Source: an uncultured Candidatus Saccharibacteria bacterium (GTDB lineage Bacteria > Patescibacteriota > Minisyncoccia > Phycocordibacterales > UBA9973). From it: a stretch of DNA of 64,000 bases. The stretch's first letter is position 1. Every line of letters begins with the position of its first letter. The notes beneath the pieces were generated by a model. The model made no database searches. It worked only from the letters and a program-made list of their open reading frames with translations, and was not told where the DNA came from. The DNA lies in the NCBI GenBank assembly GCA_964456475.1, contig CAYVZI010000006.1, forward strand, positions 7,074 through 71,073, read 5' to 3'. Of the stretch, positions 1,958 to 52,495 are shown in pieces. Both the position numbers and the translations under genes were made by a program.

Positions 1958-1970
1958 CTACGTGCGTTGT

Positions 1971-2133
1971 GTCATTCCGGACTAGATCCGGAATCCATTA
2001 GAATTAATGAACTTAAATACAAACCTGGATTCCTTACAGGAACGGTATACCTTTCACATTTTGATTACAAAACGTTCAAGGTCTTGCGGAACGGTTCCCG
2101 ACCCTTTCCTCACCCGGACGAGCCGGGAATGAC
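1971..2133. repeat. Family-1 palindromic element. A plus copy GTCATTCCGGACTAGATCCGGAATCCAT sits at 1971-1998. A partner in inverted orientation (CCCGGACGAGCCGGGAATGAC) sits at 2111-2133, with small TTCCT..AGGAA hairpins between them.
   Basis: 7-bp inverted arms around a 5-bp spacer. Same consensus as copies at 9401, 9458, 19447/19489, 25808/25854 and 50631. Confidence 0.8.
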
Positions 2134-9111: not shown

Positions 9112-9400
9112 TGTACATTTTGGTCACAAGCCTCGCTCGCGCCTCGAACTGCATCTATCTATGTGTATTCTTTTTTATGGTTTCCAAAATAACAGATAAA
9201 GAAAGCAAAACCCATCTCTTTCGTTAGAGTTTGCTTTATCCGTCTTATATTTTTTTGACCGACAGCTTGGGGAGCTGTGTTTAGCTGCTAAAGGCTACGA
9301 ATAACAACTAAAACTCAATCAGTCCGTAGTGCAAATAGTCTACTTATTTTTCACCTTGTGTCAAGTGAAAAACGGGGCATTCTTCCCCTCCGCGTATCGT

Positions 9401-9484
9401 GTCATCCCGGACTTGATCCGGGATCCATTTTTTGGGCCTTTTTCCCCTCCTTTTCAGGTCATTCCCGGCCTGGCCGGGAAATCC
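9401..9484 (+). repeat. Two family-1 palindromic elements in tandem orientation: 9401-9428 GTCATCCCGGACTTGATCCGGGATCCAT and 9458-9484 GTCATTCCCGGCCTGGCCGGGAAATCC.
   Basis: Perfect 7-8 bp inverted arms. They generate the spurious ORF 9329-9535 (VIPDLIRDP / VIPGLAGKS). Confidence 0.8.
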
Positions 9485-9497
9485 AAGCCCCGAGTCC

Positions 9498-9532
9498 AAA
9501 CGGCTCATTTCCGCCCACTTGAGCCGTTTAAC
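9498..9532 (+). repeat. Family-2 hairpin element AAACGGCTCATTTCCGCCCACTTGAGCCGTTTAAC
   Basis: 10-bp stem AAACGGCTCA/TGAGCCGTTT with 12-nt loop. A near-identical copy is at 13523-13557 and a disrupted copy at 14834-14896. Confidence 0.8.
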
Positions 9533-13522: not shown

Positions 13523-13557
13523 AAACGGCTCATTTCCGCCCATTTGAGCCGTTTGAC
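13523..13557 (+). repeat. Family-2 hairpin element AAACGGCTCATTTCCGCCCATTTGAGCCGTTTGAC
   Basis: Direct copy of 9498-9532. The two bracket the 9.5-13.5 kb island. Confidence 0.8.
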
Positions 13558-14466: not shown

Positions 14467-15108
14467 CTAAATCTTAGTATACAAAACCCCTTTCCCCGTC
14501 TTGCCCGTTTGTTTAATTTTCCCCTCCTTCTCAAGAATCGAAAGATACCGCGTCGCTGTCGCGTCAGACACATGCAACAGTTTCTCAACGTCATCATTCG
14601 TCACGCTTGTTCGCTTCGCAAACAAACCCATAACTTTATCCAGCTTTTTCCTTTTCCTAAATTGAATTACACTTTGCGCCTTCACCAAAAGTTCCCTCAT
14701 CCCACTGCGCGGAGCAACTTGAACCGACGGAGGCACCGTGCCCGATTCTACTTTTGCAGAATTTGGGGAAGCCTCCGTCGGCTTCTGCAATTCTGGTTTT
14801 ACGGTCTCAGCAATCGACTCAGCCACAGGTGATAACGGCTCATTTCCGCCCACTGGGCCCGATCCCACTTCAGTGGGATTTAGGGTTTGAGCCGTTGTAC
14901 CCGATTCTACTTCTGCAGAATTTAAGGTTGGTTCCGGTACGGCTTCTACAGGAGCTGGAGTTGGTTCGATTGGAGCTTCTACAGGAGCAGGAGTCTCCAC
15001 CACAGGAGTCACAGTCTCGTCAGCAACAACAGGCTCAACTGGAGTCTCAATTGGAACCGTTTCTACAATAGGAGTTACCTCATCCGCCATATGCAAATAG
15101 TATATCAA
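14467..15108 (-). CDS. Pro/Val/Glu-rich low-complexity protein with a C-terminal winged-helix DNA-binding domain. It contains an internal ~50-bp direct duplication and an interrupted family-2 hairpin element.
   Basis: 213 aa. C-terminus VTNDDVEKLLHVSDATATRYLSILEKEGKIKQTGKTGKGVLY (wHTH). N-terminal PVE repeats. Family-2 copy at 14834-14896, read in-frame. Confidence 0.5.
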   Translation of the reverse strand: MIYYLHMADEVTPIVETVPIETPVEPVVADETVTPVVETPAPVEAPIEPTPAPVEAVPEPTLNSAEVESGTTAQTLNPTEVGSGPVGGNEPLSPVAESIAETVKPELQKPTEASPNSAKVESGTVPPSVQVAPRSGMRELLVKAQSVIQFRKRKKLDKVMGLFAKRTSVTNDDVEKLLHVSDATATRYLSILEKEGKIKQTGKTGKGVLYTKI

Positions 15109-18745: not shown

Positions 18746-19432
18746 TTACAATTTTGATTTAGCCTTCCACTCATCTATCTTCTTTGGATCACCAGAGAGA
18801 AGGACTGGCGGAACTTTATATTTTTTATTTTTGTATTCCAAAATTTCCGGTCGAGTATAAAATTCGCTTGATGAGACGCGCTCTTCTTCGAGTGAGTCAA
18901 ATTTGCCGAGCACACCAGGAATCTGACGCGAGATTGAATCGATCAACACCATAGCCGGCAATTCCCCACCCGTGAGCACATAGTCTCCGATTGAGATATC
19001 CTCTGCTTTCAAAATCTTCGCCACACGCGCATCAATCCCTTCATAGCGCCCACAGAGCATAATAATATCGGTGTATTTCTTGGCTGAAGTCTTAGCGTAT
19101 GCAGTCGTGAATTTTTCCCCACTTGGGCTAAAACTAATTATTTTTGTCTTTGTATTCTTTCGTTTGGCAATTTTCTTCACAACGCTTTCAACCGCCTTGA
19201 GCACAGGCTCTGCACGAATAATCATTCCTGGTCCGCCACCATACGGTTTGTCGTCGACAATGCGAGACACGTTCCCATCCGGCCAGACTTTCTTGAATTT
19301 ACCCGATACAAAATTGCGCGGGTTCGTAAACGTCACCTGAATCCGCTTTTCCTTGATCGCCCGCCCAATAATAGACTCCTTGAGATAGGAATCGAAACTT
19401 TCAGGAAATAATGTAATGATATGAAATCGCAT
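18746..19432 (-). CDS. trmD: tRNA (guanine37-N1)-methyltransferase
   Basis: 228 aa. DDKPYGGGPGMII, CGRYEGIDARV, VLTGGELPAMVLIDSISR motifs. Confidence 0.9.
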   Translation of the reverse strand: MRFHIITLFPESFDSYLKESIIGRAIKEKRIQVTFTNPRNFVSGKFKKVWPDGNVSRIVDDKPYGGGPGMIIRAEPVLKAVESVVKKIAKRKNTKTKIISFSPSGEKFTTAYAKTSAKKYTDIIMLCGRYEGIDARVAKILKAEDISIGDYVLTGGELPAMVLIDSISRQIPGVLGKFDSLEEERVSSSEFYTRPEILEYKNKKYKVPPVLLSGDPKKIDEWKAKSKL

Positions 19433-19446
19433 GAAATTTTTGTATT

Positions 19447-19515
19447 GTCATGCCGGACTACGATCCGGCATCCATTATGAATTTTTCGTGGATCCCGGAT
19501 CAAGTCCAGGATGAC
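19447..19515. repeat. Family-1 palindromic element pair (MITE-like): 19447-19475 GTCATGCCGGACTACGATCCGGCATCCAT and an inverted partner at 19489-19515.
   Basis: Two hairpins in opposite orientation, 13 bp apart, in the trmD/Nudix intergenic region. Confidence 0.8.
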
Positions 19516-19520
19516 ACAGT

Positions 19521-24007: not shown

Positions 24008-25795
24008 CTACTGGTTTCGTGAACCACGTGAACGTTCTGTCTCTGTAAGCAATTTTTTGCGGAGTCGCACAAAGTGCGGAGTGACCTCAAGATATTCGTC
24101 GTGGTTGATGATTTCAAGTCCACGTTCGATAGTGAGTTCCCAAGCAGGATTGAGATACATCGCTTCGTCGGTTCCAGATGAACGGACGTTTGAGAGCGCC
24201 TTTCCTTTGATTGGGTTTACCATCATGTCTTCACCCTTTGAAGTATTTCCCACAATCATTCCTTCATACACTTCAGTGTTGTGCACGATGTACATCGTAC
24301 CGCGATCCTGAAGATTCCAAATAGAGAATCCAGCAGCCGATCCCGAGATCATCGAGATCATCGCACCCACTTCCTTCTTCTTGATTTCGCCTGCCCATGG
24401 TTTGAAGCCGATTACGCGTGAAGCAAGAATTCCCTCTCCTTTTGTATCAATAACAAATTGGTTGCGGTATCCGAGAAGTCCGCGTGTTGGAATTTCGATG
24501 AGAATGCGAGTGATACCATCCTTTTCATGCATTGAAGTGAGAAGTCCGCGACGCTTTGTAAGTGTTTCAATTACTGCACCAGAAAATTCGGTTGGAACAT
24601 CGATAGTTGTTTCTTCATACGGCTCGCATTTTTCGCCATCGATTTCTTTGGTGATCGCTTTTGGCTGAGATACTTGCATTTCAAATCCTTCGCGACGCAT
24701 TTGTTCAAGAAGCACAGCCACGTGGAGTTCTCCACGTCCAGAAACCTGGAATGTCGCTTCAGAATCGAAGTCGACTTTGAGACCGACGTTCACCTGAAGT
24801 TCGCGTTCGAGACGTTCGCGGATTTGGCGTGAAGTGACGAATTTTCCATCGCGTCCTGCAAATGGTGAATCGTTCACGAGGAACGAGAGCGTGATTGTTG
24901 GTTCGTCGATGGTGATGGTTGGAAGTGCTTGCACACTGTTGTCGCTCGCAATTGTTTCTCCGATGTACACATCAGAAATTCCAGCAATAATTCCGATATC
25001 TCCAGAAACGAGTTCCGATACAGCTTCGCGTTTCTGTCCGATGAATGAAAACATCTTTGTGATTTTAGCTTGGCGAGTCTCTTCTCCGTGTTTTACGAAA
25101 ATAGTCGTTCCATCTTTGATTGTTCCGTCGTAGACACGCACGATAGCGAGACGTCCGAGGAATGAGTCATACGCGAGGTTGAAAGCCTGTGCACATGCTG
25201 GAGCATTCACATCACGAGTCGCAGATGGTACTTGTTCAAGCACCATATCGAGAAGCGGAGCGAGGTCTTTTGAATCATCAGTAAGTTCGCGCTTTGCGAT
25301 TCCCTGTCGTCCGATTGCGTAGATAGTTTTGAAATCGATTTGTTCGTCGTTGGCACCAAGTTCAAGGAAGAGCTCAAGCACTTGTTCGTGTACGTGTTCA
25401 GGATTTGCAGCCGGCTTGTCGATTTTGTTCACGACCACGATTGGTTTGAGACCGAGTTCGAGTGACTTTTTCAAAACGAAACGAGTCTGTGGCATCGGAC
25501 CTTCTTGCGCATCAACGATGAGAAGCACGGTGTCGATAGAGCGAAGAACGCGCTCCACTTCAGATCCGAAGTCGGCGTGTCCTGGTGTGTCCACGATGTT
25601 GATTTTCACTCCTTTATATGTGAGCGAACAGTTTTTTGAGTAAATGGTGATTCCACGTTCCTTTTCGAGATCGTTCGAATCCATCGAAGATGCAGTCTCA
25701 TCGACAGCTCCAGTAAACTTCAAAAGAGCATCAGTAAGAGTTGTCTTACCATGGTCAACGTGTGCGATGATTGCAATGTTTCGAATATCAGCCAT
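24008..25795 (-). CDS. typA: Translational GTPase TypA/BipA
   Basis: 595 aa. IRNIAIIAHVDHGKTTL G1 motif, DTPGHADF, NKIDK. EF-G-like domain order with a TypA C-terminus. Confidence 0.9.
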   Translation of the reverse strand: MADIRNIAIIAHVDHGKTTLTDALLKFTGAVDETASSMDSNDLEKERGITIYSKNCSLTYKGVKINIVDTPGHADFGSEVERVLRSIDTVLLIVDAQEGPMPQTRFVLKKSLELGLKPIVVVNKIDKPAANPEHVHEQVLELFLELGANDEQIDFKTIYAIGRQGIAKRELTDDSKDLAPLLDMVLEQVPSATRDVNAPACAQAFNLAYDSFLGRLAIVRVYDGTIKDGTTIFVKHGEETRQAKITKMFSFIGQKREAVSELVSGDIGIIAGISDVYIGETIASDNSVQALPTITIDEPTITLSFLVNDSPFAGRDGKFVTSRQIRERLERELQVNVGLKVDFDSEATFQVSGRGELHVAVLLEQMRREGFEMQVSQPKAITKEIDGEKCEPYEETTIDVPTEFSGAVIETLTKRRGLLTSMHEKDGITRILIEIPTRGLLGYRNQFVIDTKGEGILASRVIGFKPWAGEIKKKEVGAMISMISGSAAGFSIWNLQDRGTMYIVHNTEVYEGMIVGNTSKGEDMMVNPIKGKALSNVRSSGTDEAMYLNPAWELTIERGLEIINHDEYLEVTPHFVRLRKKLLTETERSRGSRNQ

Positions 25796-25807
25796 AAATG
25801 TTTCTGT

Positions 25808-25882
25808 GTCATCCCGGACTCCGATCCGGGATCCATGATTTTCTTAATTAGTAATGGATTCCGGCTCGTAGGCCGGAATGAC
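25808..25882. repeat. Family-1 palindromic element pair: 25808-25836 GTCATCCCGGACTCCGATCCGGGATCCAT and an inverted partner at 25854-25882 (ATGGATTCCGGCTCGTAGGCCGGAATGAC).
   Basis: MITE-like composite just upstream of typA. Confidence 0.8.
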
Positions 25883-27256: not shown

Positions 27257-27372
27257 AGTTTGAATTTTATCATTCAGGATACAAAAGAGCGAGCGACTTT
27301 CGTCGCTCGCTCTTTTGTTGTATTTGTATAACTTTATGAACTTTACAAACTTTATGAACTTTCAACTTGCCG

Positions 27373-29328: not shown

Positions 29329-30040
29329 ACATCTTGAGGTTTAACCTCAAGATGTGATAGTATTAACCATATGAGAAAAGCACCCCTGGTAGAGGAACAT
29401 TTTTACCATATATACAATCGAGGAGTAGATAAGCGTAAAGTCTTTGAAAGTAAAAAAGATTATTCGCGTTTTTTGTATAACCTATACCTTTCAAATTCTA
29501 CACAAGCTTTTAACTTGTCCGATCTAATCAAATATCAAGAATCTAAAGAATTGATATTTTCCCTGCCTCGCGAAGATGAATTGGTTTCAATTCATGCATA
29601 CAGTTTAATGCCGAACCATTTTCATTTGATTATTAGTCAAAAAAAGGAAAAAGGTATCAGTCTTTTCATGCAAAAGCTCACTACTGCATACACTATGTAT
29701 TTTAATAAGAAGAGCAATCGTTCAGGTTCTCTTTTTCAAGGAACTTTCAAATCTAAACATATCGCATCTGATGATTATCTTCGTTACCTATTTGCATACG
29801 TACATGCAAATTCCTTCTCAACAATCGAGGGAGAGATATCTGAAAAAAATATTGAAAAAGTTCTCAATTATGAATATTCAAGCATTCTCGATTATCAAGA
29901 CATTATTCGACCAGAAAATTCAATCGTGAGAACAGATTTTTTTGAAAAAGAATTTACGAATAAAGATGGTCTTATTGAACAATTAAAAGCATGGCTCTCT
30001 TACCATCAACATCCTGAGGTTAAACCTCAAGATATCCAAA
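29329..30040 (+). mobile_element. IS200/IS605-like or REP-associated HUH tyrosine transposase element: transposase gene flanked by imperfect palindromic hairpins
   Basis: 5' hairpin CACATCTTGAGGTT-AA-ACCTCAAGATGTG (29329-29357). Related 3' hairpin CCTGAGGTT-AA-ACCTCAAGA (30016-30037). Confidence 0.6.
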
Positions 30041-32140: not shown

Positions 32141-32292
32141 TCGAGTTCATCAAGTCTATAAAGTTTATAAAGTTAAAAGTCATACGAATGCAATTTCTTC
32201 CCCGCCTGTACACAGGAGGGGGTGGCCGGTACTCCGGACGGGGTGGTTCCTAAACTTTATAAACTTTACGAACTTTATAAACTTTTAACTTT
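32141..32292 (+). repeat. Family-3 A/T-rich AACTTTATAAACTT repeats in inverted orientation (32150-32180 vs 32251-32292) flanking a ~52-nt GC-rich structured core (32199-32250). The whole unit is MITE-like or a small structured RNA.
   Basis: AAGTTTATAAAGTT on the left and (AACTTTATAAACTT)x3 on the right. The core TTCCCCGCCTGTACACAGGAGGGGGTGGCCGGTACTCCGGACGGGGTGGTTCC has nested hairpins CCTGT/ACAGG and CCGG/CCGG. Confidence 0.55.
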
Positions 32293-32295
32293 TTT

Positions 32296-33336
32296 ATGTA
32301 TTCTCATAAAAATAACGACAAACAACTTCTATATTCCCTTATCTTCGTCGGACTTGTTGCCGGGCTTTTTGGACATTATTTTGAAACAGGCAAACTGAAT
32401 TTTGCTACAAACTCAAATCTCAATTCTGCTACGGCATTGCTTGCAACCGAACAGAATCTTACTTCCACAACACCATCTCTTCCGTTGATATCACTCGGCT
32501 TCGTCGGCGACATCATGCTTGATCGTGGAGTAAAGAAATCTGTTATGAACAACATGAGGGGCGACTATTCCAAACTTTTTGCAAACACCGAGTTCCTCAA
32601 AACTCCCGACATCATGTTTGCCAATCTCGAAGGCCCGGTATCAGATCAAGGCAAAGACAAAAGAAACCTCTACTCGTTCCGCATGGACCCAAAATCATTA
32701 ATTGCACTCAAAGATTCCGGCATCGACGTCGTTTCTTTTGCCAACAATCATGTAGGTGATTACGGCCGGCCGGCTTTTGAGGATACTCTCAAGCGACTTC
32801 GCGACACAGGTATTCTTTCTTGTGGTGCTGGAATGAACCGCGCCGAAGCGGAAACACCAGCCATCGTCGTGCAAAACAATTTCAAAGTCGGCTATTTGTG
32901 TTTTTCAGATGTCGGCCCCGCAGATATGGAAGCCACCGATTCAACGAGTGGAATTCTCTTGGCAAGCAATCCCCGCTTTGACGAAATAATCAAAAACGCC
33001 GCAACAAAAGTAGATGCGCTCATCGTATCATTCCATTTTGGAGAAGAATATGAACAGATTCACAATGGACCACAAGAAGCACTCGCAAAAAAAGCCATCA
33101 ATGATGGCGCTGTAATGATTGTCGGACATCATCCGCATGTTCCGCAAGATATTGCCTATTATGACGGCAAGCCAGTACTCTACAGTCTGGGCAATTTCAT
33201 CTTCGATCAGTATTTTTCAAAAGAAACAATGGGCGGATTATTCGTCACTGCAACTCTCATCGGCACCGAGGTCTCCAACGTAACCTCGCATCAAATCGTC
33301 CTTAACAAAAACTTCGTACCTCACTTAGCAAAGTGA
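32296..33336 (+). CDS. CapA/PgsA family poly-gamma-glutamate synthesis metallophosphatase
   Basis: 346 aa. GDIMLDRG, FANLEGP, FANNHVGDYG, GHHPHVPQ, LYSLGNFIFDQ motifs. Confidence 0.8.
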   Translation: MYSHKNNDKQLLYSLIFVGLVAGLFGHYFETGKLNFATNSNLNSATALLATEQNLTSTTPSLPLISLGFVGDIMLDRGVKKSVMNNMRGDYSKLFANTEFLKTPDIMFANLEGPVSDQGKDKRNLYSFRMDPKSLIALKDSGIDVVSFANNHVGDYGRPAFEDTLKRLRDTGILSCGAGMNRAEAETPAIVVQNNFKVGYLCFSDVGPADMEATDSTSGILLASNPRFDEIIKNAATKVDALIVSFHFGEEYEQIHNGPQEALAKKAINDGAVMIVGHHPHVPQDIAYYDGKPVLYSLGNFIFDQYFSKETMGGLFVTATLIGTEVSNVTSHQIVLNKNFVPHLAK

Positions 33337-33430
33337 CTCTTGGAGTATATTCAGCAGAATGACCCTGGGGGTATACTTAGCAAAGTGACTCTTGGAGCAT
33401 ATTCAGCAGAATGACTCTTGGAGCAGCTTG
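33323..33430 (+). repeat. Tandem direct repeat, 2 x ~53 bp, overlapping the capA stop
   Basis: Unit CTTAGCAAAGTGACTCTTGGAGyATATTCAGCAGAATGAC.... Confidence 0.6.
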
Positions 33431-38375: not shown

Positions 38376-38385
38376 AAGAATAAGT

Positions 38386-38470
38386 TAAAAGTTTATAAAG
38401 TTCTTAAAGTTTATAAAGTGAAATTCAACAATGCGTGCCTGTATAGACTTTATGAACTTTCAACTTTATA
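38386..38470 (+). repeat. Family-3 repeat pair: (AGTTTATAAAGT)x2 then the inverted (ACTTTATRAACTT)x2 around a 25-bp core
   Basis: Read directly, between rnc and the nusB-Nudix gene. Confidence 0.55.
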
Positions 38471-38481
38471 AACTTGATGAA

Positions 38482-39387
38482 CTATTGTGCTCCCGTCAAT
38501 TTCGAAATAGCAGTCGCCATGTATCCAGTCACGTCATCATACATTTTGAGTCCTGCCACTTCTGCCACAGTAAACCAGCGCACATCATCAAGTCCTCCAG
38601 AATCATTTTTAAGAGTTACAGGTACGTATGATGACTCACCAAGAAAGAATATGACATGCTTGCGAATCTTGCCTTTTGTCGGATGATTGGCAACATATTC
38701 ACTCTCACCAATCTTGTCCACAACTTGTATATCAAGATTTGTTTCTTCTTTTATTTCACGAACAGCCGCCTGTTCTGGAGTCTCTCCTTCCTCAACTCCT
38801 CCTTTAGAAAGGGTCCAATAGCCGAAAATATCATGCACAAGCGCAAAGTAGAGTTCATCACCGTTTCGTGCGTAGATAAGCGCTCCAGCTTTTTGCTCAA
38901 TCGGAAGCGTAGTGATGTCCACATCTTCGTTTTTCTTTTGACGCTTTGATTTCTGATCCTTACCTGGCTCGCCAATTTCTTTGTAGACAGCACCAAGCAC
39001 ACCGTTGATGAATCGTGATGAACTATCACCGCCGAATGTCTTTGCGAGTTCGATTGCTTCATTGATAGCAACTTTCGGTGGAACTTCGTTATGGTCACCA
39101 AAAAGGAGCTCGCCGAGACCCATGCGCAAAATATTGCGGTCTACGGCATTGATCTTTTCTACTGGCCATTCCGGTGCAGCCTTGGCAATGATTTGGTCGA
39201 TAATCTCTCGTTTGTCGATGACAAAACCGAGAATTTTCTTCATAAAAGCAATATCCTCATTTCCTGGTGCAAATTCCCCTTCGTTGCGTTCAAGCATAGA
39301 AGCAGTACCCTCTGTTGGATATTGTTTAAAATCCCACTCAAAGAGTGTTTGAAGAACTATTGATCTAGAAAGATGACGATTTGCCAT
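38482..39387 (-). CDS. nusB: NusB-Nudix fusion protein: N-terminal antitermination factor NusB fold fused to a C-terminal Nudix hydrolase
   Basis: 301 aa. N-terminus LQTLFEWDF...VDRNILRMGLGELLF...AINEAIELAKTFGGDSSSRFINGVLGAV (NusB). C-terminal Nudix box GGVEEGETPEQAAVREIKEETNL. Confidence 0.75.
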   Translation of the reverse strand: MANRHLSRSIVLQTLFEWDFKQYPTEGTASMLERNEGEFAPGNEDIAFMKKILGFVIDKREIIDQIIAKAAPEWPVEKINAVDRNILRMGLGELLFGDHNEVPPKVAINEAIELAKTFGGDSSSRFINGVLGAVYKEIGEPGKDQKSKRQKKNEDVDITTLPIEQKAGALIYARNGDELYFALVHDIFGYWTLSKGGVEEGETPEQAAVREIKEETNLDIQVVDKIGESEYVANHPTKGKIRKHVIFFLGESSYVPVTLKNDSGGLDDVRWFTVAEVAGLKMYDDVTGYMATAISKLTGAQ

Positions 39388-50324: not shown

Positions 50325-52169
50325 TTAACGCACCGTCCAGCCCTTATTTTGCAAGGCTTTTGTGATGTTTTCCATTACCCCGGTCACATCTGCATCAGCG
50401 AGCGTTCGTTCATGGGATTGGAATACAAGTCGGACCGCGAGAGATGTTTTTTCATCCTTAGTGAATTGATCAAAAAGTTGTGGTTCACGAATAAGGAGTG
50501 CCGTTCCCTCTTTTTTACAAAGGTCGATAAGTTCATCCGCATTTGTTCCTACTGGGACCCAAACTGCAACGTCGCGAGAAATAAATGGATACTGACTCCA
50601 TGGCGTGAATTTTTTATCTCTCACCACTATGTCATTCCGGACTTGATCCGGGATCCATGATGAAATTTCTTTCGTGAATTCTTCAAGCGTCGCTTCAACA
50701 ACCCCCTTCTTATCAGCATACGCAATATGAATTTCTTCCCTAAACGCGTTAGCGTCGGGCGATCCAGCTTCACTGGATTTAGCCACACCAGCTTCGGGAA
50801 ACACAGTCCCAATTTCAAAAATTTTTGTTTCGTCATTACCAAGTAGTGGTGCATTCAAGCGATTGAGTTCATATGAATCCTTGAGTCCGTCGGCAAGATT
50901 CGTTCGGAGAAATTCTTTGCCTTTTGCACCGCGCGAGACTTCCACCTTTCCCTTTTTGGTAAATGTATACGTCATCACTTCACTATAGCCATCGCTGAGC
51001 AACTTCTCGCGTGCTGCACTCACACGTGCTTGCGTATCATTTGCCTTCGATTCAAATGCAATTTTCGGAATAGTTGGAACTACTTTGTCATACCCCATAA
51101 TGCGTCCAATTTCTTCTACCATATCGTGAGGACCAGTGAGGTCGAGTCGCCATGCAGGTACGGTGATGCGAATCTGACTATTGTCGATTGCATATTCAAA
51201 TGCGTAGCGTTTCAAAATATCTTCAATATCAAGGAGTGAAATTTCCATACCAAGCTTCTTGCTTACATCACTCACAGAAAATTCCAAGGTTTGTACTTCT
51301 TGTGGACTCGGATACACGTCAACAACATCTTCAAACTGCGCCTCGGGACACATTTCGAGAATAAGCGCGGAAAGTTCGCGCATGGCATACGGAGCAAGTT
51401 CGGGTGTAAGATCATTTTCAAAACGCTTTGCCGCATCAGAAATAAGACCAAGGCGTCGCGCGGTGCGACGCACAGATGTAGGATCGAAGTTCGCCACCTC
51501 AAGTATGATCTCTGTTGTATCATCTGAAATTCCAGAATTCGTTCCACCTTTCACGCCGGCGATCGCGAGCGATTTCTGACCATCAGTGATCATCATGTCG
51601 ACCTCCTTGAGTTTGGCGACAATCTTTTCTCCTCCGACGGTTTCAAATTCCTCACCATCTTTTGCGGAACCAATCACAATTTTTTCTCCGGCGAGTTTCT
51701 TGAGGTCGAATGCGTGTGTTGGCTGACCAGTGTTCCAAAGCACGATGTTCGTTGCATCAACAATATTGTTAATTGATTTCTGTCCAATCGATTCAAGATG
51801 CTTCACTACCCATTCCGGAGAAGGACCAACCTTTACTCCTCGAACGATGCGTCCCATATAACGACGGCAAGCAGGATTTGCAATTTCAATCGCAAGATTT
51901 CCAGGCTTCGATTCAGGAATTTTATACATCGGCGTTGGATCAACGTATTTGATGCCAAGCTGACCCGAAAGTTCACGAGCAACACCAAGATGACCTAGCA
52001 AATCATGTGCTCGATTTGGAAGAATGTTCAAATCATAAAGTGTGTCTCCATCAGGAAGCGTATCAACCGACTCAACTTCGCAGAGATGCAGAGTAAAAAC
52101 ATCTGCCAGTTTTTCTGCAGTTGAAATTTCAGGAACATACCATTTGAGCCAGTTATATGAGATTTTCAT
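50325..52169 (-). CDS. pheT: Phenylalanyl-tRNA synthetase beta subunit (short form) carrying an in-frame family-1 palindromic element
   Basis: 614 aa. MKISYNWLKWYVPEI N-terminus. B3/4 and B5 domains. Residues SWIPDQVRNDIV are encoded by the repeat at 50631-50658. Confidence 0.85.
   Translation of the reverse strand: MKISYNWLKWYVPEISTAEKLADVFTLHLCEVESVDTLPDGDTLYDLNILPNRAHDLLGHLGVARELSGQLGIKYVDPTPMYKIPESKPGNLAIEIANPACRRYMGRIVRGVKVGPSPEWVVKHLESIGQKSINNIVDATNIVLWNTGQPTHAFDLKKLAGEKIVIGSAKDGEEFETVGGEKIVAKLKEVDMMITDGQKSLAIAGVKGGTNSGISDDTTEIILEVANFDPTSVRRTARRLGLISDAAKRFENDLTPELAPYAMRELSALILEMCPEAQFEDVVDVYPSPQEVQTLEFSVSDVSKKLGMEISLLDIEDILKRYAFEYAIDNSQIRITVPAWRLDLTGPHDMVEEIGRIMGYDKVVPTIPKIAFESKANDTQARVSAAREKLLSDGYSEVMTYTFTKKGKVEVSRGAKGKEFLRTNLADGLKDSYELNRLNAPLLGNDETKIFEIGTVFPEAGVAKSSEAGSPDANAFREEIHIAYADKKGVVEATLEEFTKEISSWIPDQVRNDIVVRDKKFTPWSQYPFISRDVAVWVPVGTNADELIDLCKKEGTALLIREPQLFDQFTKDEKTSLAVRLVFQSHERTLADADVTGVMENITKALQNKGWTVR
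50631..50658 (+). repeat. Family-1 palindromic element GTCATTCCGGACTTGATCCGGGATCCAT inside the pheT coding sequence (in-frame)
   Basis: Identical consensus to the intergenic copies. The reading frame is preserved. Confidence 0.8.
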
Positions 52170-52495
52170 TTTATTTTAGTTATTTTCTTTGTTACCGAAC
52201 CAACAAACAATCTAAATGCTGGGCGTTTTTCTTTCTCATAAATGTAAGGTATACCAAGGACTGATTTACATTTGTCACAAATTAATTGGGAAATCTCTTT
52301 AACTGTAAAACTTTCAAGTCCTGCCCACTTTTTTGAATTTGAAATTCTATCTAGATAAGTTCTTTTTAAAATACCTGGGCCGTCTTTTTGATATGAAAAA
52401 ATATAATTTCCACATTTTTCACAACAAATTTCAAGAAGTCTTGAATATCCACCACGTGTTTTTTTATATTTATCATTCTTAAAAACTTTTTTCAT
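52166..52495 (-). CDS. Small zinc-ribbon protein (CxxC...CxxC) inserted between pheS and pheT
   Basis: 109 aa. CCEKCGN...CDKCKS. Start overlaps the pheT... stop/start ATGA overlap at 52166-52169. Confidence 0.4.
   Translation of the reverse strand: MKKVFKNDKYKKTRGGYSRLLEICCEKCGNYIFSYQKDGPGILKRTYLDRISNSKKWAGLESFTVKEISQLICDKCKSVLGIPYIYEKEKRPAFRLFVGSVTKKITKIK

Follow-up and report, generated by a model that had tools for sequence, protein, structure and literature searches.

How does a short hairpin repeat come to be translated inside an essential aminoacyl-tRNA synthetase? The question is raised by pheT, the gene for the phenylalanine--tRNA ligase (PheRS) beta subunit, in a 64,000-nt window of contig CAYVZI010000006.1 from the Patescibacteria (candidate phyla radiation, CPR). 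Window coordinates refer to the forward strand, P-numbers denote PheT orthologues and L-numbers DNA loci or contigs. A sequence-only reading had placed a palindromic repeat in this gene, and a repeat is indeed found there, at 50630-50658 within the 614-aa open reading frame (ORF) 50325-52169 of the minus strand. By every feature testable here, the element is an Ssn-related motif (SRM), the class to which the Neisseria Transformation Sequence (NTS) belongs. We propose, with a probability of about 0.72, that an SRM-class hairpin repeat is tolerated in an interdomain linker of PheT. As an example of a selfish repeat that has survived within a gene it is neat, if rather ordinary.

A translated hairpin in the PheT linker

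The pheT copy is laid out as T-GTC, ATTCCGGA, cttga, TCCGGGAT and CC-AT. The element proper (50631-50657) is translated from the minus strand as PheT residues W505-D513, WIPDQVRND, which lie within the segment S504-V515 (SWIPDQVRNDIV, from 50625-50660). Pfam recognizes B3_4 (1e-58), B5, a partial catalytic-like domain (CLM) and FDX-ACB (residues 525-612, 3e-19) in the 614-aa ORF. The frame is uninterrupted by the element, as had been read from the letters, because FDX-ACB lies downstream of it in the same frame. The arrangement is not an assembly artefact, since an independent assembly from another run (Logan SRR12712864, L128) is identical over the pheT region (100% over 4363 bp).

Between 27 and 28 of the 28 bases of the pheT segment match other copies (chance expectation 0.00). 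A search of the window allowing up to three mismatches returned four matches against 0.00 expected, bearing out the claim that the repeat is dispersed and not fortuitous. An account that dispenses with an element altogether, taking the similarity as chance or the segment as ordinary ancestral linker, would fit a linker whose length is close to that of element-free orthologues. It is refuted by the copy matches, by agreement with the published SRM pattern and by the presence of this type of element, read in different frames, in other lineages of pheT, and we regard it as almost certainly wrong.

The repeat falls in a hypervariable linker. Orthologues of PheT were drawn from Patescibacteria, with one source named 'Candidatus Pacebacteria', and in an alignment of 25 of them the element segment (...TLEEF to WSQYPF) is the sole long stretch without conservation. 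Linker length was measured between the anchors EEF (...TLEEF) and WS (WSQYPF) in 60 orthologues, of which 55 are element-free. In the latter the commonest length is 22 aa and the median 23 aa (interquartile range 22-26.5 aa), and the window protein has 25 aa, a net change of about +2-3 aa. This disagrees with the some 12 added residues that had been claimed. Orthologues do carry a segment of near-equal length at this position, which goes halfway against the predicted insertion, but that segment is hypervariable rather than conserved; a net insertion of 10-12 aa is not seen. Given the near-normal length, either the nine repeat-encoded residues replaced linker residues or a deletion followed insertion.

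An AlphaFold2 model of PheT (numbered as the protein minus one) has a mean predicted local distance difference test score (pLDDT) of 77.7; averaged in blocks of 10 residues, the score is 51 and 42 over model residues 501-520. Values drop below 50 at model residues 508-522, which directly precede the C-terminal domain's first strand. Alignment to solved PheT chains (2RHS, 3PCO, 1B70 and others) covers residues 38-406 and 524-613 only. The element lies outside these structure-aligned parts, and thus in a flexible connector before the anticodon-binding B8 domain. The linker is unconstrained in sequence and probably disordered, and the tolerant site that had been foreseen is borne out by its lack of conservation and low-confidence modelling.

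The closest orthologue, P0001 (L004; 97% identity outside the linker), carries this copy too, and there the stem is perfect. A single G-to-A change sets the window copy apart; it breaks a stem pair and gives N512 in place of D. Because this change leaves a T.G mismatch, the single-stranded DNA fold is weak (-5.6 kcal/mol, z -1.1), the weakest hairpin among the window copies. The pheT copy would be neutral for PheRS and appears to be decaying; the broken pair is intact in the 97%-identical orthologue.

Membership of the SRM class and candidate agents of spread

The family as built here has an 8-bp stem, a loop of 3-6 nt, a 5' flank (T)GTC and a 3' flank CCA. Across 23 aligned copies from the window and CPR contigs, no change is seen at G4, T5, C6 or the C that follows the stem (23/23). 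Standard pairs fill 98.4% of stem cells and compensatory double changes occur at 6 of the 8 pairs; none of 500 shuffles scored as high, and slid controls collapse. The published SRM search pattern, HGTCWYN(0-2)YYVSBRHN(0-5)WNVSBRGN(0-2)RNCYNB (PMC11893778), is matched exactly at 50630-50658, 9400-9428 and 25807-25836, three occurrences where 30 first-order Markov simulations give 0.07. The remaining window copies are one position off the pattern.

NTS, which includes dRS3, is CGTCATTCCCGCGMAVGCGGGAATCYRG, and the broader SRM class is set by a degenerate pattern (PMC11893778). These motifs flank ssnA, the gene for a 94-aa single-domain GIY-YIG nuclease, and SsnA binds and cuts the motif as single-stranded DNA only, on one strand only (PMC11893778). 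Cleavage depends most on the three bases 5' of the stem, and binding on the C after it (PMC11893778). The repeat described here shares the architecture and near-identical flanks (TGTCATTCCGGACTTGATCCGGGATCCAT in pheT), matches the degenerate pattern, takes its orientation from the 5' GTC and 3' C, is multi-copy and mostly intergenic, and in other contigs is found as the same variants flanking GIY-YIG genes. We class the element as an SRM because sequence, structure and distribution agree.

It differs from the described SRM/NTS-Ssn systems in its host, Patescibacteria being absent from the text of PMC11893778, and in that no ssn gene was found within the 64 kb. This copy also sits in an essential coding sequence, whereas 2% of NTS copies are genic in N. 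meningitidis (PMC11893778), and the repeats here occur additionally as REPIN-like (resembling inverted doublets of repetitive extragenic palindromic, REP, sequences) head-to-head doublets inserting as a unit. What is new relative to that paper is the Patescibacteria host, the doublets that insert whole and the repeated colonization of one synthetase linker.

An exact-pattern scan of species-representative genomes returned at least 120 stretches of DNA from many phyla; among the matches listed are sphingomonads, beta- and delta-proteobacteria, Nitrospirae, Dehalococcoidia, Omnitrophota and several Patescibacteria. In these loci, stop-to-stop ORF cover was unusable for finding in-frame SRMs at high GC, where the long 'ORFs' inspected were upstream read-through. 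The exact motif flanks GIY-YIG genes in L065 (Sphingopyxis), L030 and L119. A variant with the stem ATCCTGAA does so in L222, L166, L233, L205, L237 and L172; all of these genes are called at the level of GIY-YIG, not of cd10448 (the single-domain ssn type). L222 has the full SRM-gene-SRM layout (608-634, 730-999 and 1048-1074). In L205, a 2-kb contig, four SRMs with four different stems, one of them the NTS-like GTCATTCCCGCGAAGGCGGGAATCCAG, stand beside one GIY-YIG gene within 73-1652; several stem variants with the same flanks can therefore coexist in one genome.

A scan of the whole window against Rfam matched no family, and a protein-database search with concatenated SRM peptides gave one candidate and no match. 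Full-text literature searching with the repeat-encoded peptides found nothing; it was the DNA words that led to PMC11893778. Low-GC metagenome contigs bearing GIY-YIG genes had no informative gene overlap with the window by which to place them in the CPR.

The sequence-only reading had compared the element to Rickettsia palindromic elements (RPEs). The comparison is apt for the outcome, a palindromic repeat lying in frame in a housekeeping gene at a tolerant, fold-compatible position (PMC10969869), but it holds as analogy only, the element belonging to the SRM/NTS class instead (PMC11893778). RPEs are ~150 bp long, fall into ten families, are specific to Rickettsia and each encode a conserved peptide in one frame (PMC10969869). 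The unit here is 29 nt (~70 nt as a doublet), spans many phyla, is read in several frames, matches the SRM pattern and brings no net lengthening at this site. Its peptides change with frame (WIPDQVRND, GSRIKSGMT, VIPDLIRDP), so that an RPE-type conserved peptide is not found. Membership of the RPE family is contradicted by element length and distribution, the separation being drawn from the published description of RPEs, and we consider it highly improbable.

A different agent of spread is suggested by the window itself. The repeats might be REP/REPIN-type elements mobilized by a Y1 (IS200-like) transposase resembling the REP-associated tyrosine transposases (RAYTs), in place of an Ssn nuclease. 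A Y1_Tnp gene is present at 29377-30033 (+; Pfam 1.7e-08), and L005, whose pheT bears an SRM, has a 51%-identical homologue immediately upstream of pheS. As in REPINs, the SRMs are short, dispersed intergenic hairpins, and each head-to-head doublet folds as one long hairpin; doublets also occur within pheT of L006 and L129. A RAYT gene normally has its own REPs on either side, and REPs are extragenic by definition. The window gene and its L005 homologue are flanked by another palindrome, TTGAGGTTTAACCTCAA, seen in the window only at the gene ends (as a 25-nt palindrome, ATCTTGAGGTTTAACCTCAAGAT, at 29331-29355 and 30009-30033). The SRM moreover lacks the REP-type 5' GTAG, and in other contigs GIY-YIG genes have these SRM variants at their flanks. 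The Y1 protein is disfavoured as the SRM partner because TTGAGGTTTAACCTCAA flanks it and has no other copy in the window, and we judge this route unlikely.

Recurrence in other PheT lineages

At least five distinct lineages of PheT have SRMs in this linker, single or doublet, with differing frames and orientations. The SRM of P0007 (L003) agrees with that of the window gene in position and frame but not in its stem, which is ATCCTGAA/TTCAGGAT; it reads WILKQVQDD. In P0010 (L005) the linker SRM is TGGATTCCGGATCAAGTCCGGAAGGACA. The linkers of P0003 (L006) and P0044 (L129) each hold a head-to-head doublet in another frame, reading VIPASEPEP...SRIKSGMT and VIPDLIRDP...DSGSGAGMT, respectively. In P0044, from a Patescibacteria metagenome-assembled genome, the same 68-nt doublet is present twice in pheT (L129 4861-4928 and 6334-6401), both copies reading VIPDLIRDPRDSKMDSGSGAGMT. 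The N-terminal one lies in a loop between VESV and DLNILPNRAHD and is a clear gain of ~20 aa. With other stems, frames and orientations, and doublets, in the same linker, the orthologue DNA identifies the repeat, not the peptide, as the unit.

The ATCCTGAA stem is found in at least 120 stretches of metagenome DNA, and also in a Nomurabacteria contig. It is thus a large family and not a private compensatory change of P0007. A few of its 142 matches in metagenome contigs lie deep in real genes with Pfam domains on both sides. Such in-frame SRMs were found in RecG, between the wedge and helicase domains (L237 2292-4865, on a contig with two GIY-YIG genes as well), in the C-terminal helical domain of MnmG/GidA (L234 4594-6621), in a P-type ATPase (L215 411-2816) and in a YfhO-family membrane protein (L235 4425-6989). 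The genic share of this variant is of the same order as the 2% of NTS in N. meningitidis. Four of the six reading frames of the SRM are open, the other two being closed by TGA in the loop and by TGA in ATGACA.

In a neighbour-joining tree built with the linker left out, SRM-bearing PheTs are scattered. The relatives nearest to them are SRM-free, namely P0002 for the window PheT (79% identity), P0028 for P0010 (79%) and P0005, P0006 and P0004 for P0003 (85, 83 and 81%). Because the bearers are scattered, their nearest relatives are SRM-free and frames, orientations and copy numbers differ, we infer that recurrent SRM gain at a permissive linker is the simplest reading. A single old insertion followed by many losses, though still conceivable, would need near-perfect hairpins to be kept across 25-35% protein divergence.

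Could the hairpin instead be retained for a role in DNA or RNA? It might serve as an Ssn-type single-strand nuclease site limiting recombination or transformation across this essential operon, or as a pause or processing signal in the pheST transcript, and recurrence in the linker would then reflect selection or targeting. Near-perfect linker hairpins in at least five PheT lineages whose proteins are only 66-77% identical point this way, as do the several window copies placed 11-13 nt upstream of start codons and the finding that NTS repeats influence how transforming DNA integrates in Neisseria (PMC11893778). However, 55 of the 60 orthologues have no linker SRM, and frames, orientation and copy number vary by lineage. 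The window pheT copy has the weakest hairpin (z -1.1), with a stem pair newly lost relative to P0001. Unrelated repeats (INS2 and the STFNF type, described below) also gather in pheT loops, as expected of a merely permissive site, and in-frame SRMs occur in unrelated genes too. We disfavour a functional role because most orthologues are SRM-free, this copy is weakened and unrelated repeats lie in the same gene; it seems a doubtful explanation.

A bolder view of the same data appears improbable to us. SRM singles and head-to-head doublets would be an actively mobile REPIN-like unit in Patescibacteria that repeatedly lands or is retained in particular loops of essential genes, with the pheT B7-B8 linker as a hotspot, and the hairpins might do work, for example as marks for an Ssn-type single-strand nuclease limiting core-gene recombination, or might supply streamlined genomes with new linker sequence in general.

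The account we prefer, a tolerated SRM-class repeat, starts from an oriented hairpin with a variable 8-bp stem between a conserved 5' (T)GTC and 3' C(C)A. In this Patescibacteria genome such repeats sit mostly in the short spacers between genes, alone or in head-to-head doublets, and one has come to lie in the B7-B8 linker of pheT, ~22 aa of unconstrained, probably disordered sequence before the anticodon-binding domain. It would survive there because it sits in an open frame (4/6 open), because the linker tolerates almost any sequence and because linker length is kept, whether by replacement of linker codons or by later deletion. Copies may be made or kept through a process acting on single-stranded DNA hairpins with an Ssn-type nuclease encoded elsewhere in the genome, which would act in trans.

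Several points weigh against this account. Neither a motif regular expression nor tblastn with three GIY-YIG proteins from other loci found a GIY-YIG/Ssn gene in the 64-kb window, and none was found in ~60 kb of CPR-labelled contigs. No empty site is available at high identity, the closest orthologue, P0001, being already filled. With a net change of +2-3 aa only, simple insertion at this site is not directly demonstrated. Recurrence at one linker could reflect targeting or selection and not mere tolerance.

The SRM/NTS-Ssn repeat class is extended by these data to Patescibacteria. An essential aminoacyl-tRNA synthetase can keep SRM hairpins in frame, and has done so more than once in the same interdomain linker, single or doublet; with its filled and its empty sites, pheT of this clade offers a natural series in which to study SRM spread. 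For annotation, WIPDQVRND, VIPDLIRDP and GSRIKSGMT in CPR proteins should be taken as repeat-derived and not as conserved motifs. Knowledge of PheRS is unaltered.

Window copies and neighbouring repeats

A hairpin-aware scan of the window found seven copies (1971+, 9401+, 19447+, 19489-, 25808+, 25855- and 50631+). Including a divergent variant, the 64 kb hold eight, seven of them intergenic and one, that in pheT, genic (Table 1). As single-stranded DNA, the intergenic single copies have folding energies of -7.6 to -9.2 kcal/mol (z about -3). Six copies are on the plus strand and two on the minus strand, and GC skew is negative over most of the window; the copies are too few for this split to be interpreted. 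The copy at 9400-9428 is read as VIPDLIRDP in a short, probably spurious intergenic ORF, which agrees with the earlier report of that peptide from another frame. Copies stand 11-13 nt upstream of the dnaG, trmD and typA/bipA starts (1957-1998, 19432-19475 and 25795-25836) in identical orientation with respect to the gene. Nearly all of the 88-nt spacer between the NUDIX gene and trmD is taken up by the doublet at 19446-19517.

Table 1 Positions of pheT, its linker and the SRM copies in the window
Feature	Position	Strand	Context and evidence
SRM/NTS-like hairpin repeat TGTCATTCCGGACTTGATCCGGGATCCAT in pheT	50630-50658	+	matches published SRM pattern; hairpin core 50634-50654
pheT, phenylalanine--tRNA ligase beta subunit, 614 aa, short CPR form without B2 domain	50325-52169	-	Pfam, orthologues, PDB alignment
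Hypervariable interdomain linker, residues 499-523 (TKEISSWIPDQVRNDIVVRDKKFTP)	50601-50675	-	between reduced catalytic-like (B6/7) and FDX-ACB (B8) anticodon-binding domains; holds the SRM
SRM copy, stem ATTCCGGA/TCCGGAAT, compensated	1970-1998	+	intergenic, rpoC/dnaG; 12 nt upstream of dnaG start codon
SRM copy, perfect stem	9400-9428	+	intergenic, upstream of rpoB; fold -9.2 kcal/mol, z -3.1
Divergent SRM-like variant GGTCATTCCCGGCCTGGCCGGGAAATCCA	9458-9487	+	intergenic; recognized by eye only, fails strict pattern
Head-to-head SRM doublet, REPIN-like	19446-19517	19446-19475 (+), 19489-19517 (-)	NUDIX gene/trmD spacer; fold -20.3 kcal/mol, z -6.0
Head-to-head SRM doublet	25807-25882	25807-25836 (+), 25855-25882 (-)	starts 11 nt upstream of typA/bipA start codon; fold -20.4 kcal/mol, z -4.9

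The window pheT carries a second, unrelated in-frame insertion, INS2 (50739-50783, 45 nt, residues 463-477), which encodes AKSSEAGSPDANAFR. It forms a small hairpin (ATCCAG cttca CTGGAT), and AlphaFold pLDDT is below 50 there. INS2 is absent from the 97%-identical P0001, and the distant P0003 has nearly identical DNA at the same site (L006, about 1940-1990). It is the real net insertion in the gene and accounts for the difference between PheT lengths of 614 and 599 aa. In a sliding-window comparison asking whether INS2 and the linker came by recombination from a P0003-like allele, DNA identity reaches 90% around INS2, a value inflated by the shared insertion itself. Three hairpins of INS2 type (CCCGATYC...GRATTTRG) lie in frame at 14743-14764, 14860-14881 and 14902-14923, in ORF 14467-15108 (-). 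They fall in the low-complexity N-terminal half of its 213-aa protein and read NSAEVESGT, NPTEVGSGP and NSAKVESGT. INS2-type hairpins may be a second repeat family living in coding sequence.

The linkers of P0004, P0006, P0046 and P0061 share LLSTFNFQ(L/P)ST, which, judged from the peptides, resembles the translation of a short tandem DNA repeat (CTTTCAA-like); other repeat types therefore also settle at the pheT linker. The window PheT is without the B2 (tRNA-binding OB) domain present in solved bacterial structures. Between pheS and pheT lies a conserved ORF of ~100-109 aa with no convincing Pfam match, overlapping the pheT start by 4 nt (52166-52495 -; L004 467-796; L129 4446-4739).

Another palindromic family, AAACGGCTCATTTCCGCCCAYTTGAGCCGTTT, is present at 9497-9529, 13523-13555 and 14832-14860, one copy adjoining the SRMs upstream of rpoB. 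AT-rich arrays with a 9-nt period (AACTTTAYRAA) occur at 27330-27368, 32144-32294 and 38379-38483 and partly form long inverted repeats (95% complementary over 41 nt). A 26-nt tandem repeat lies at 33323-33421.

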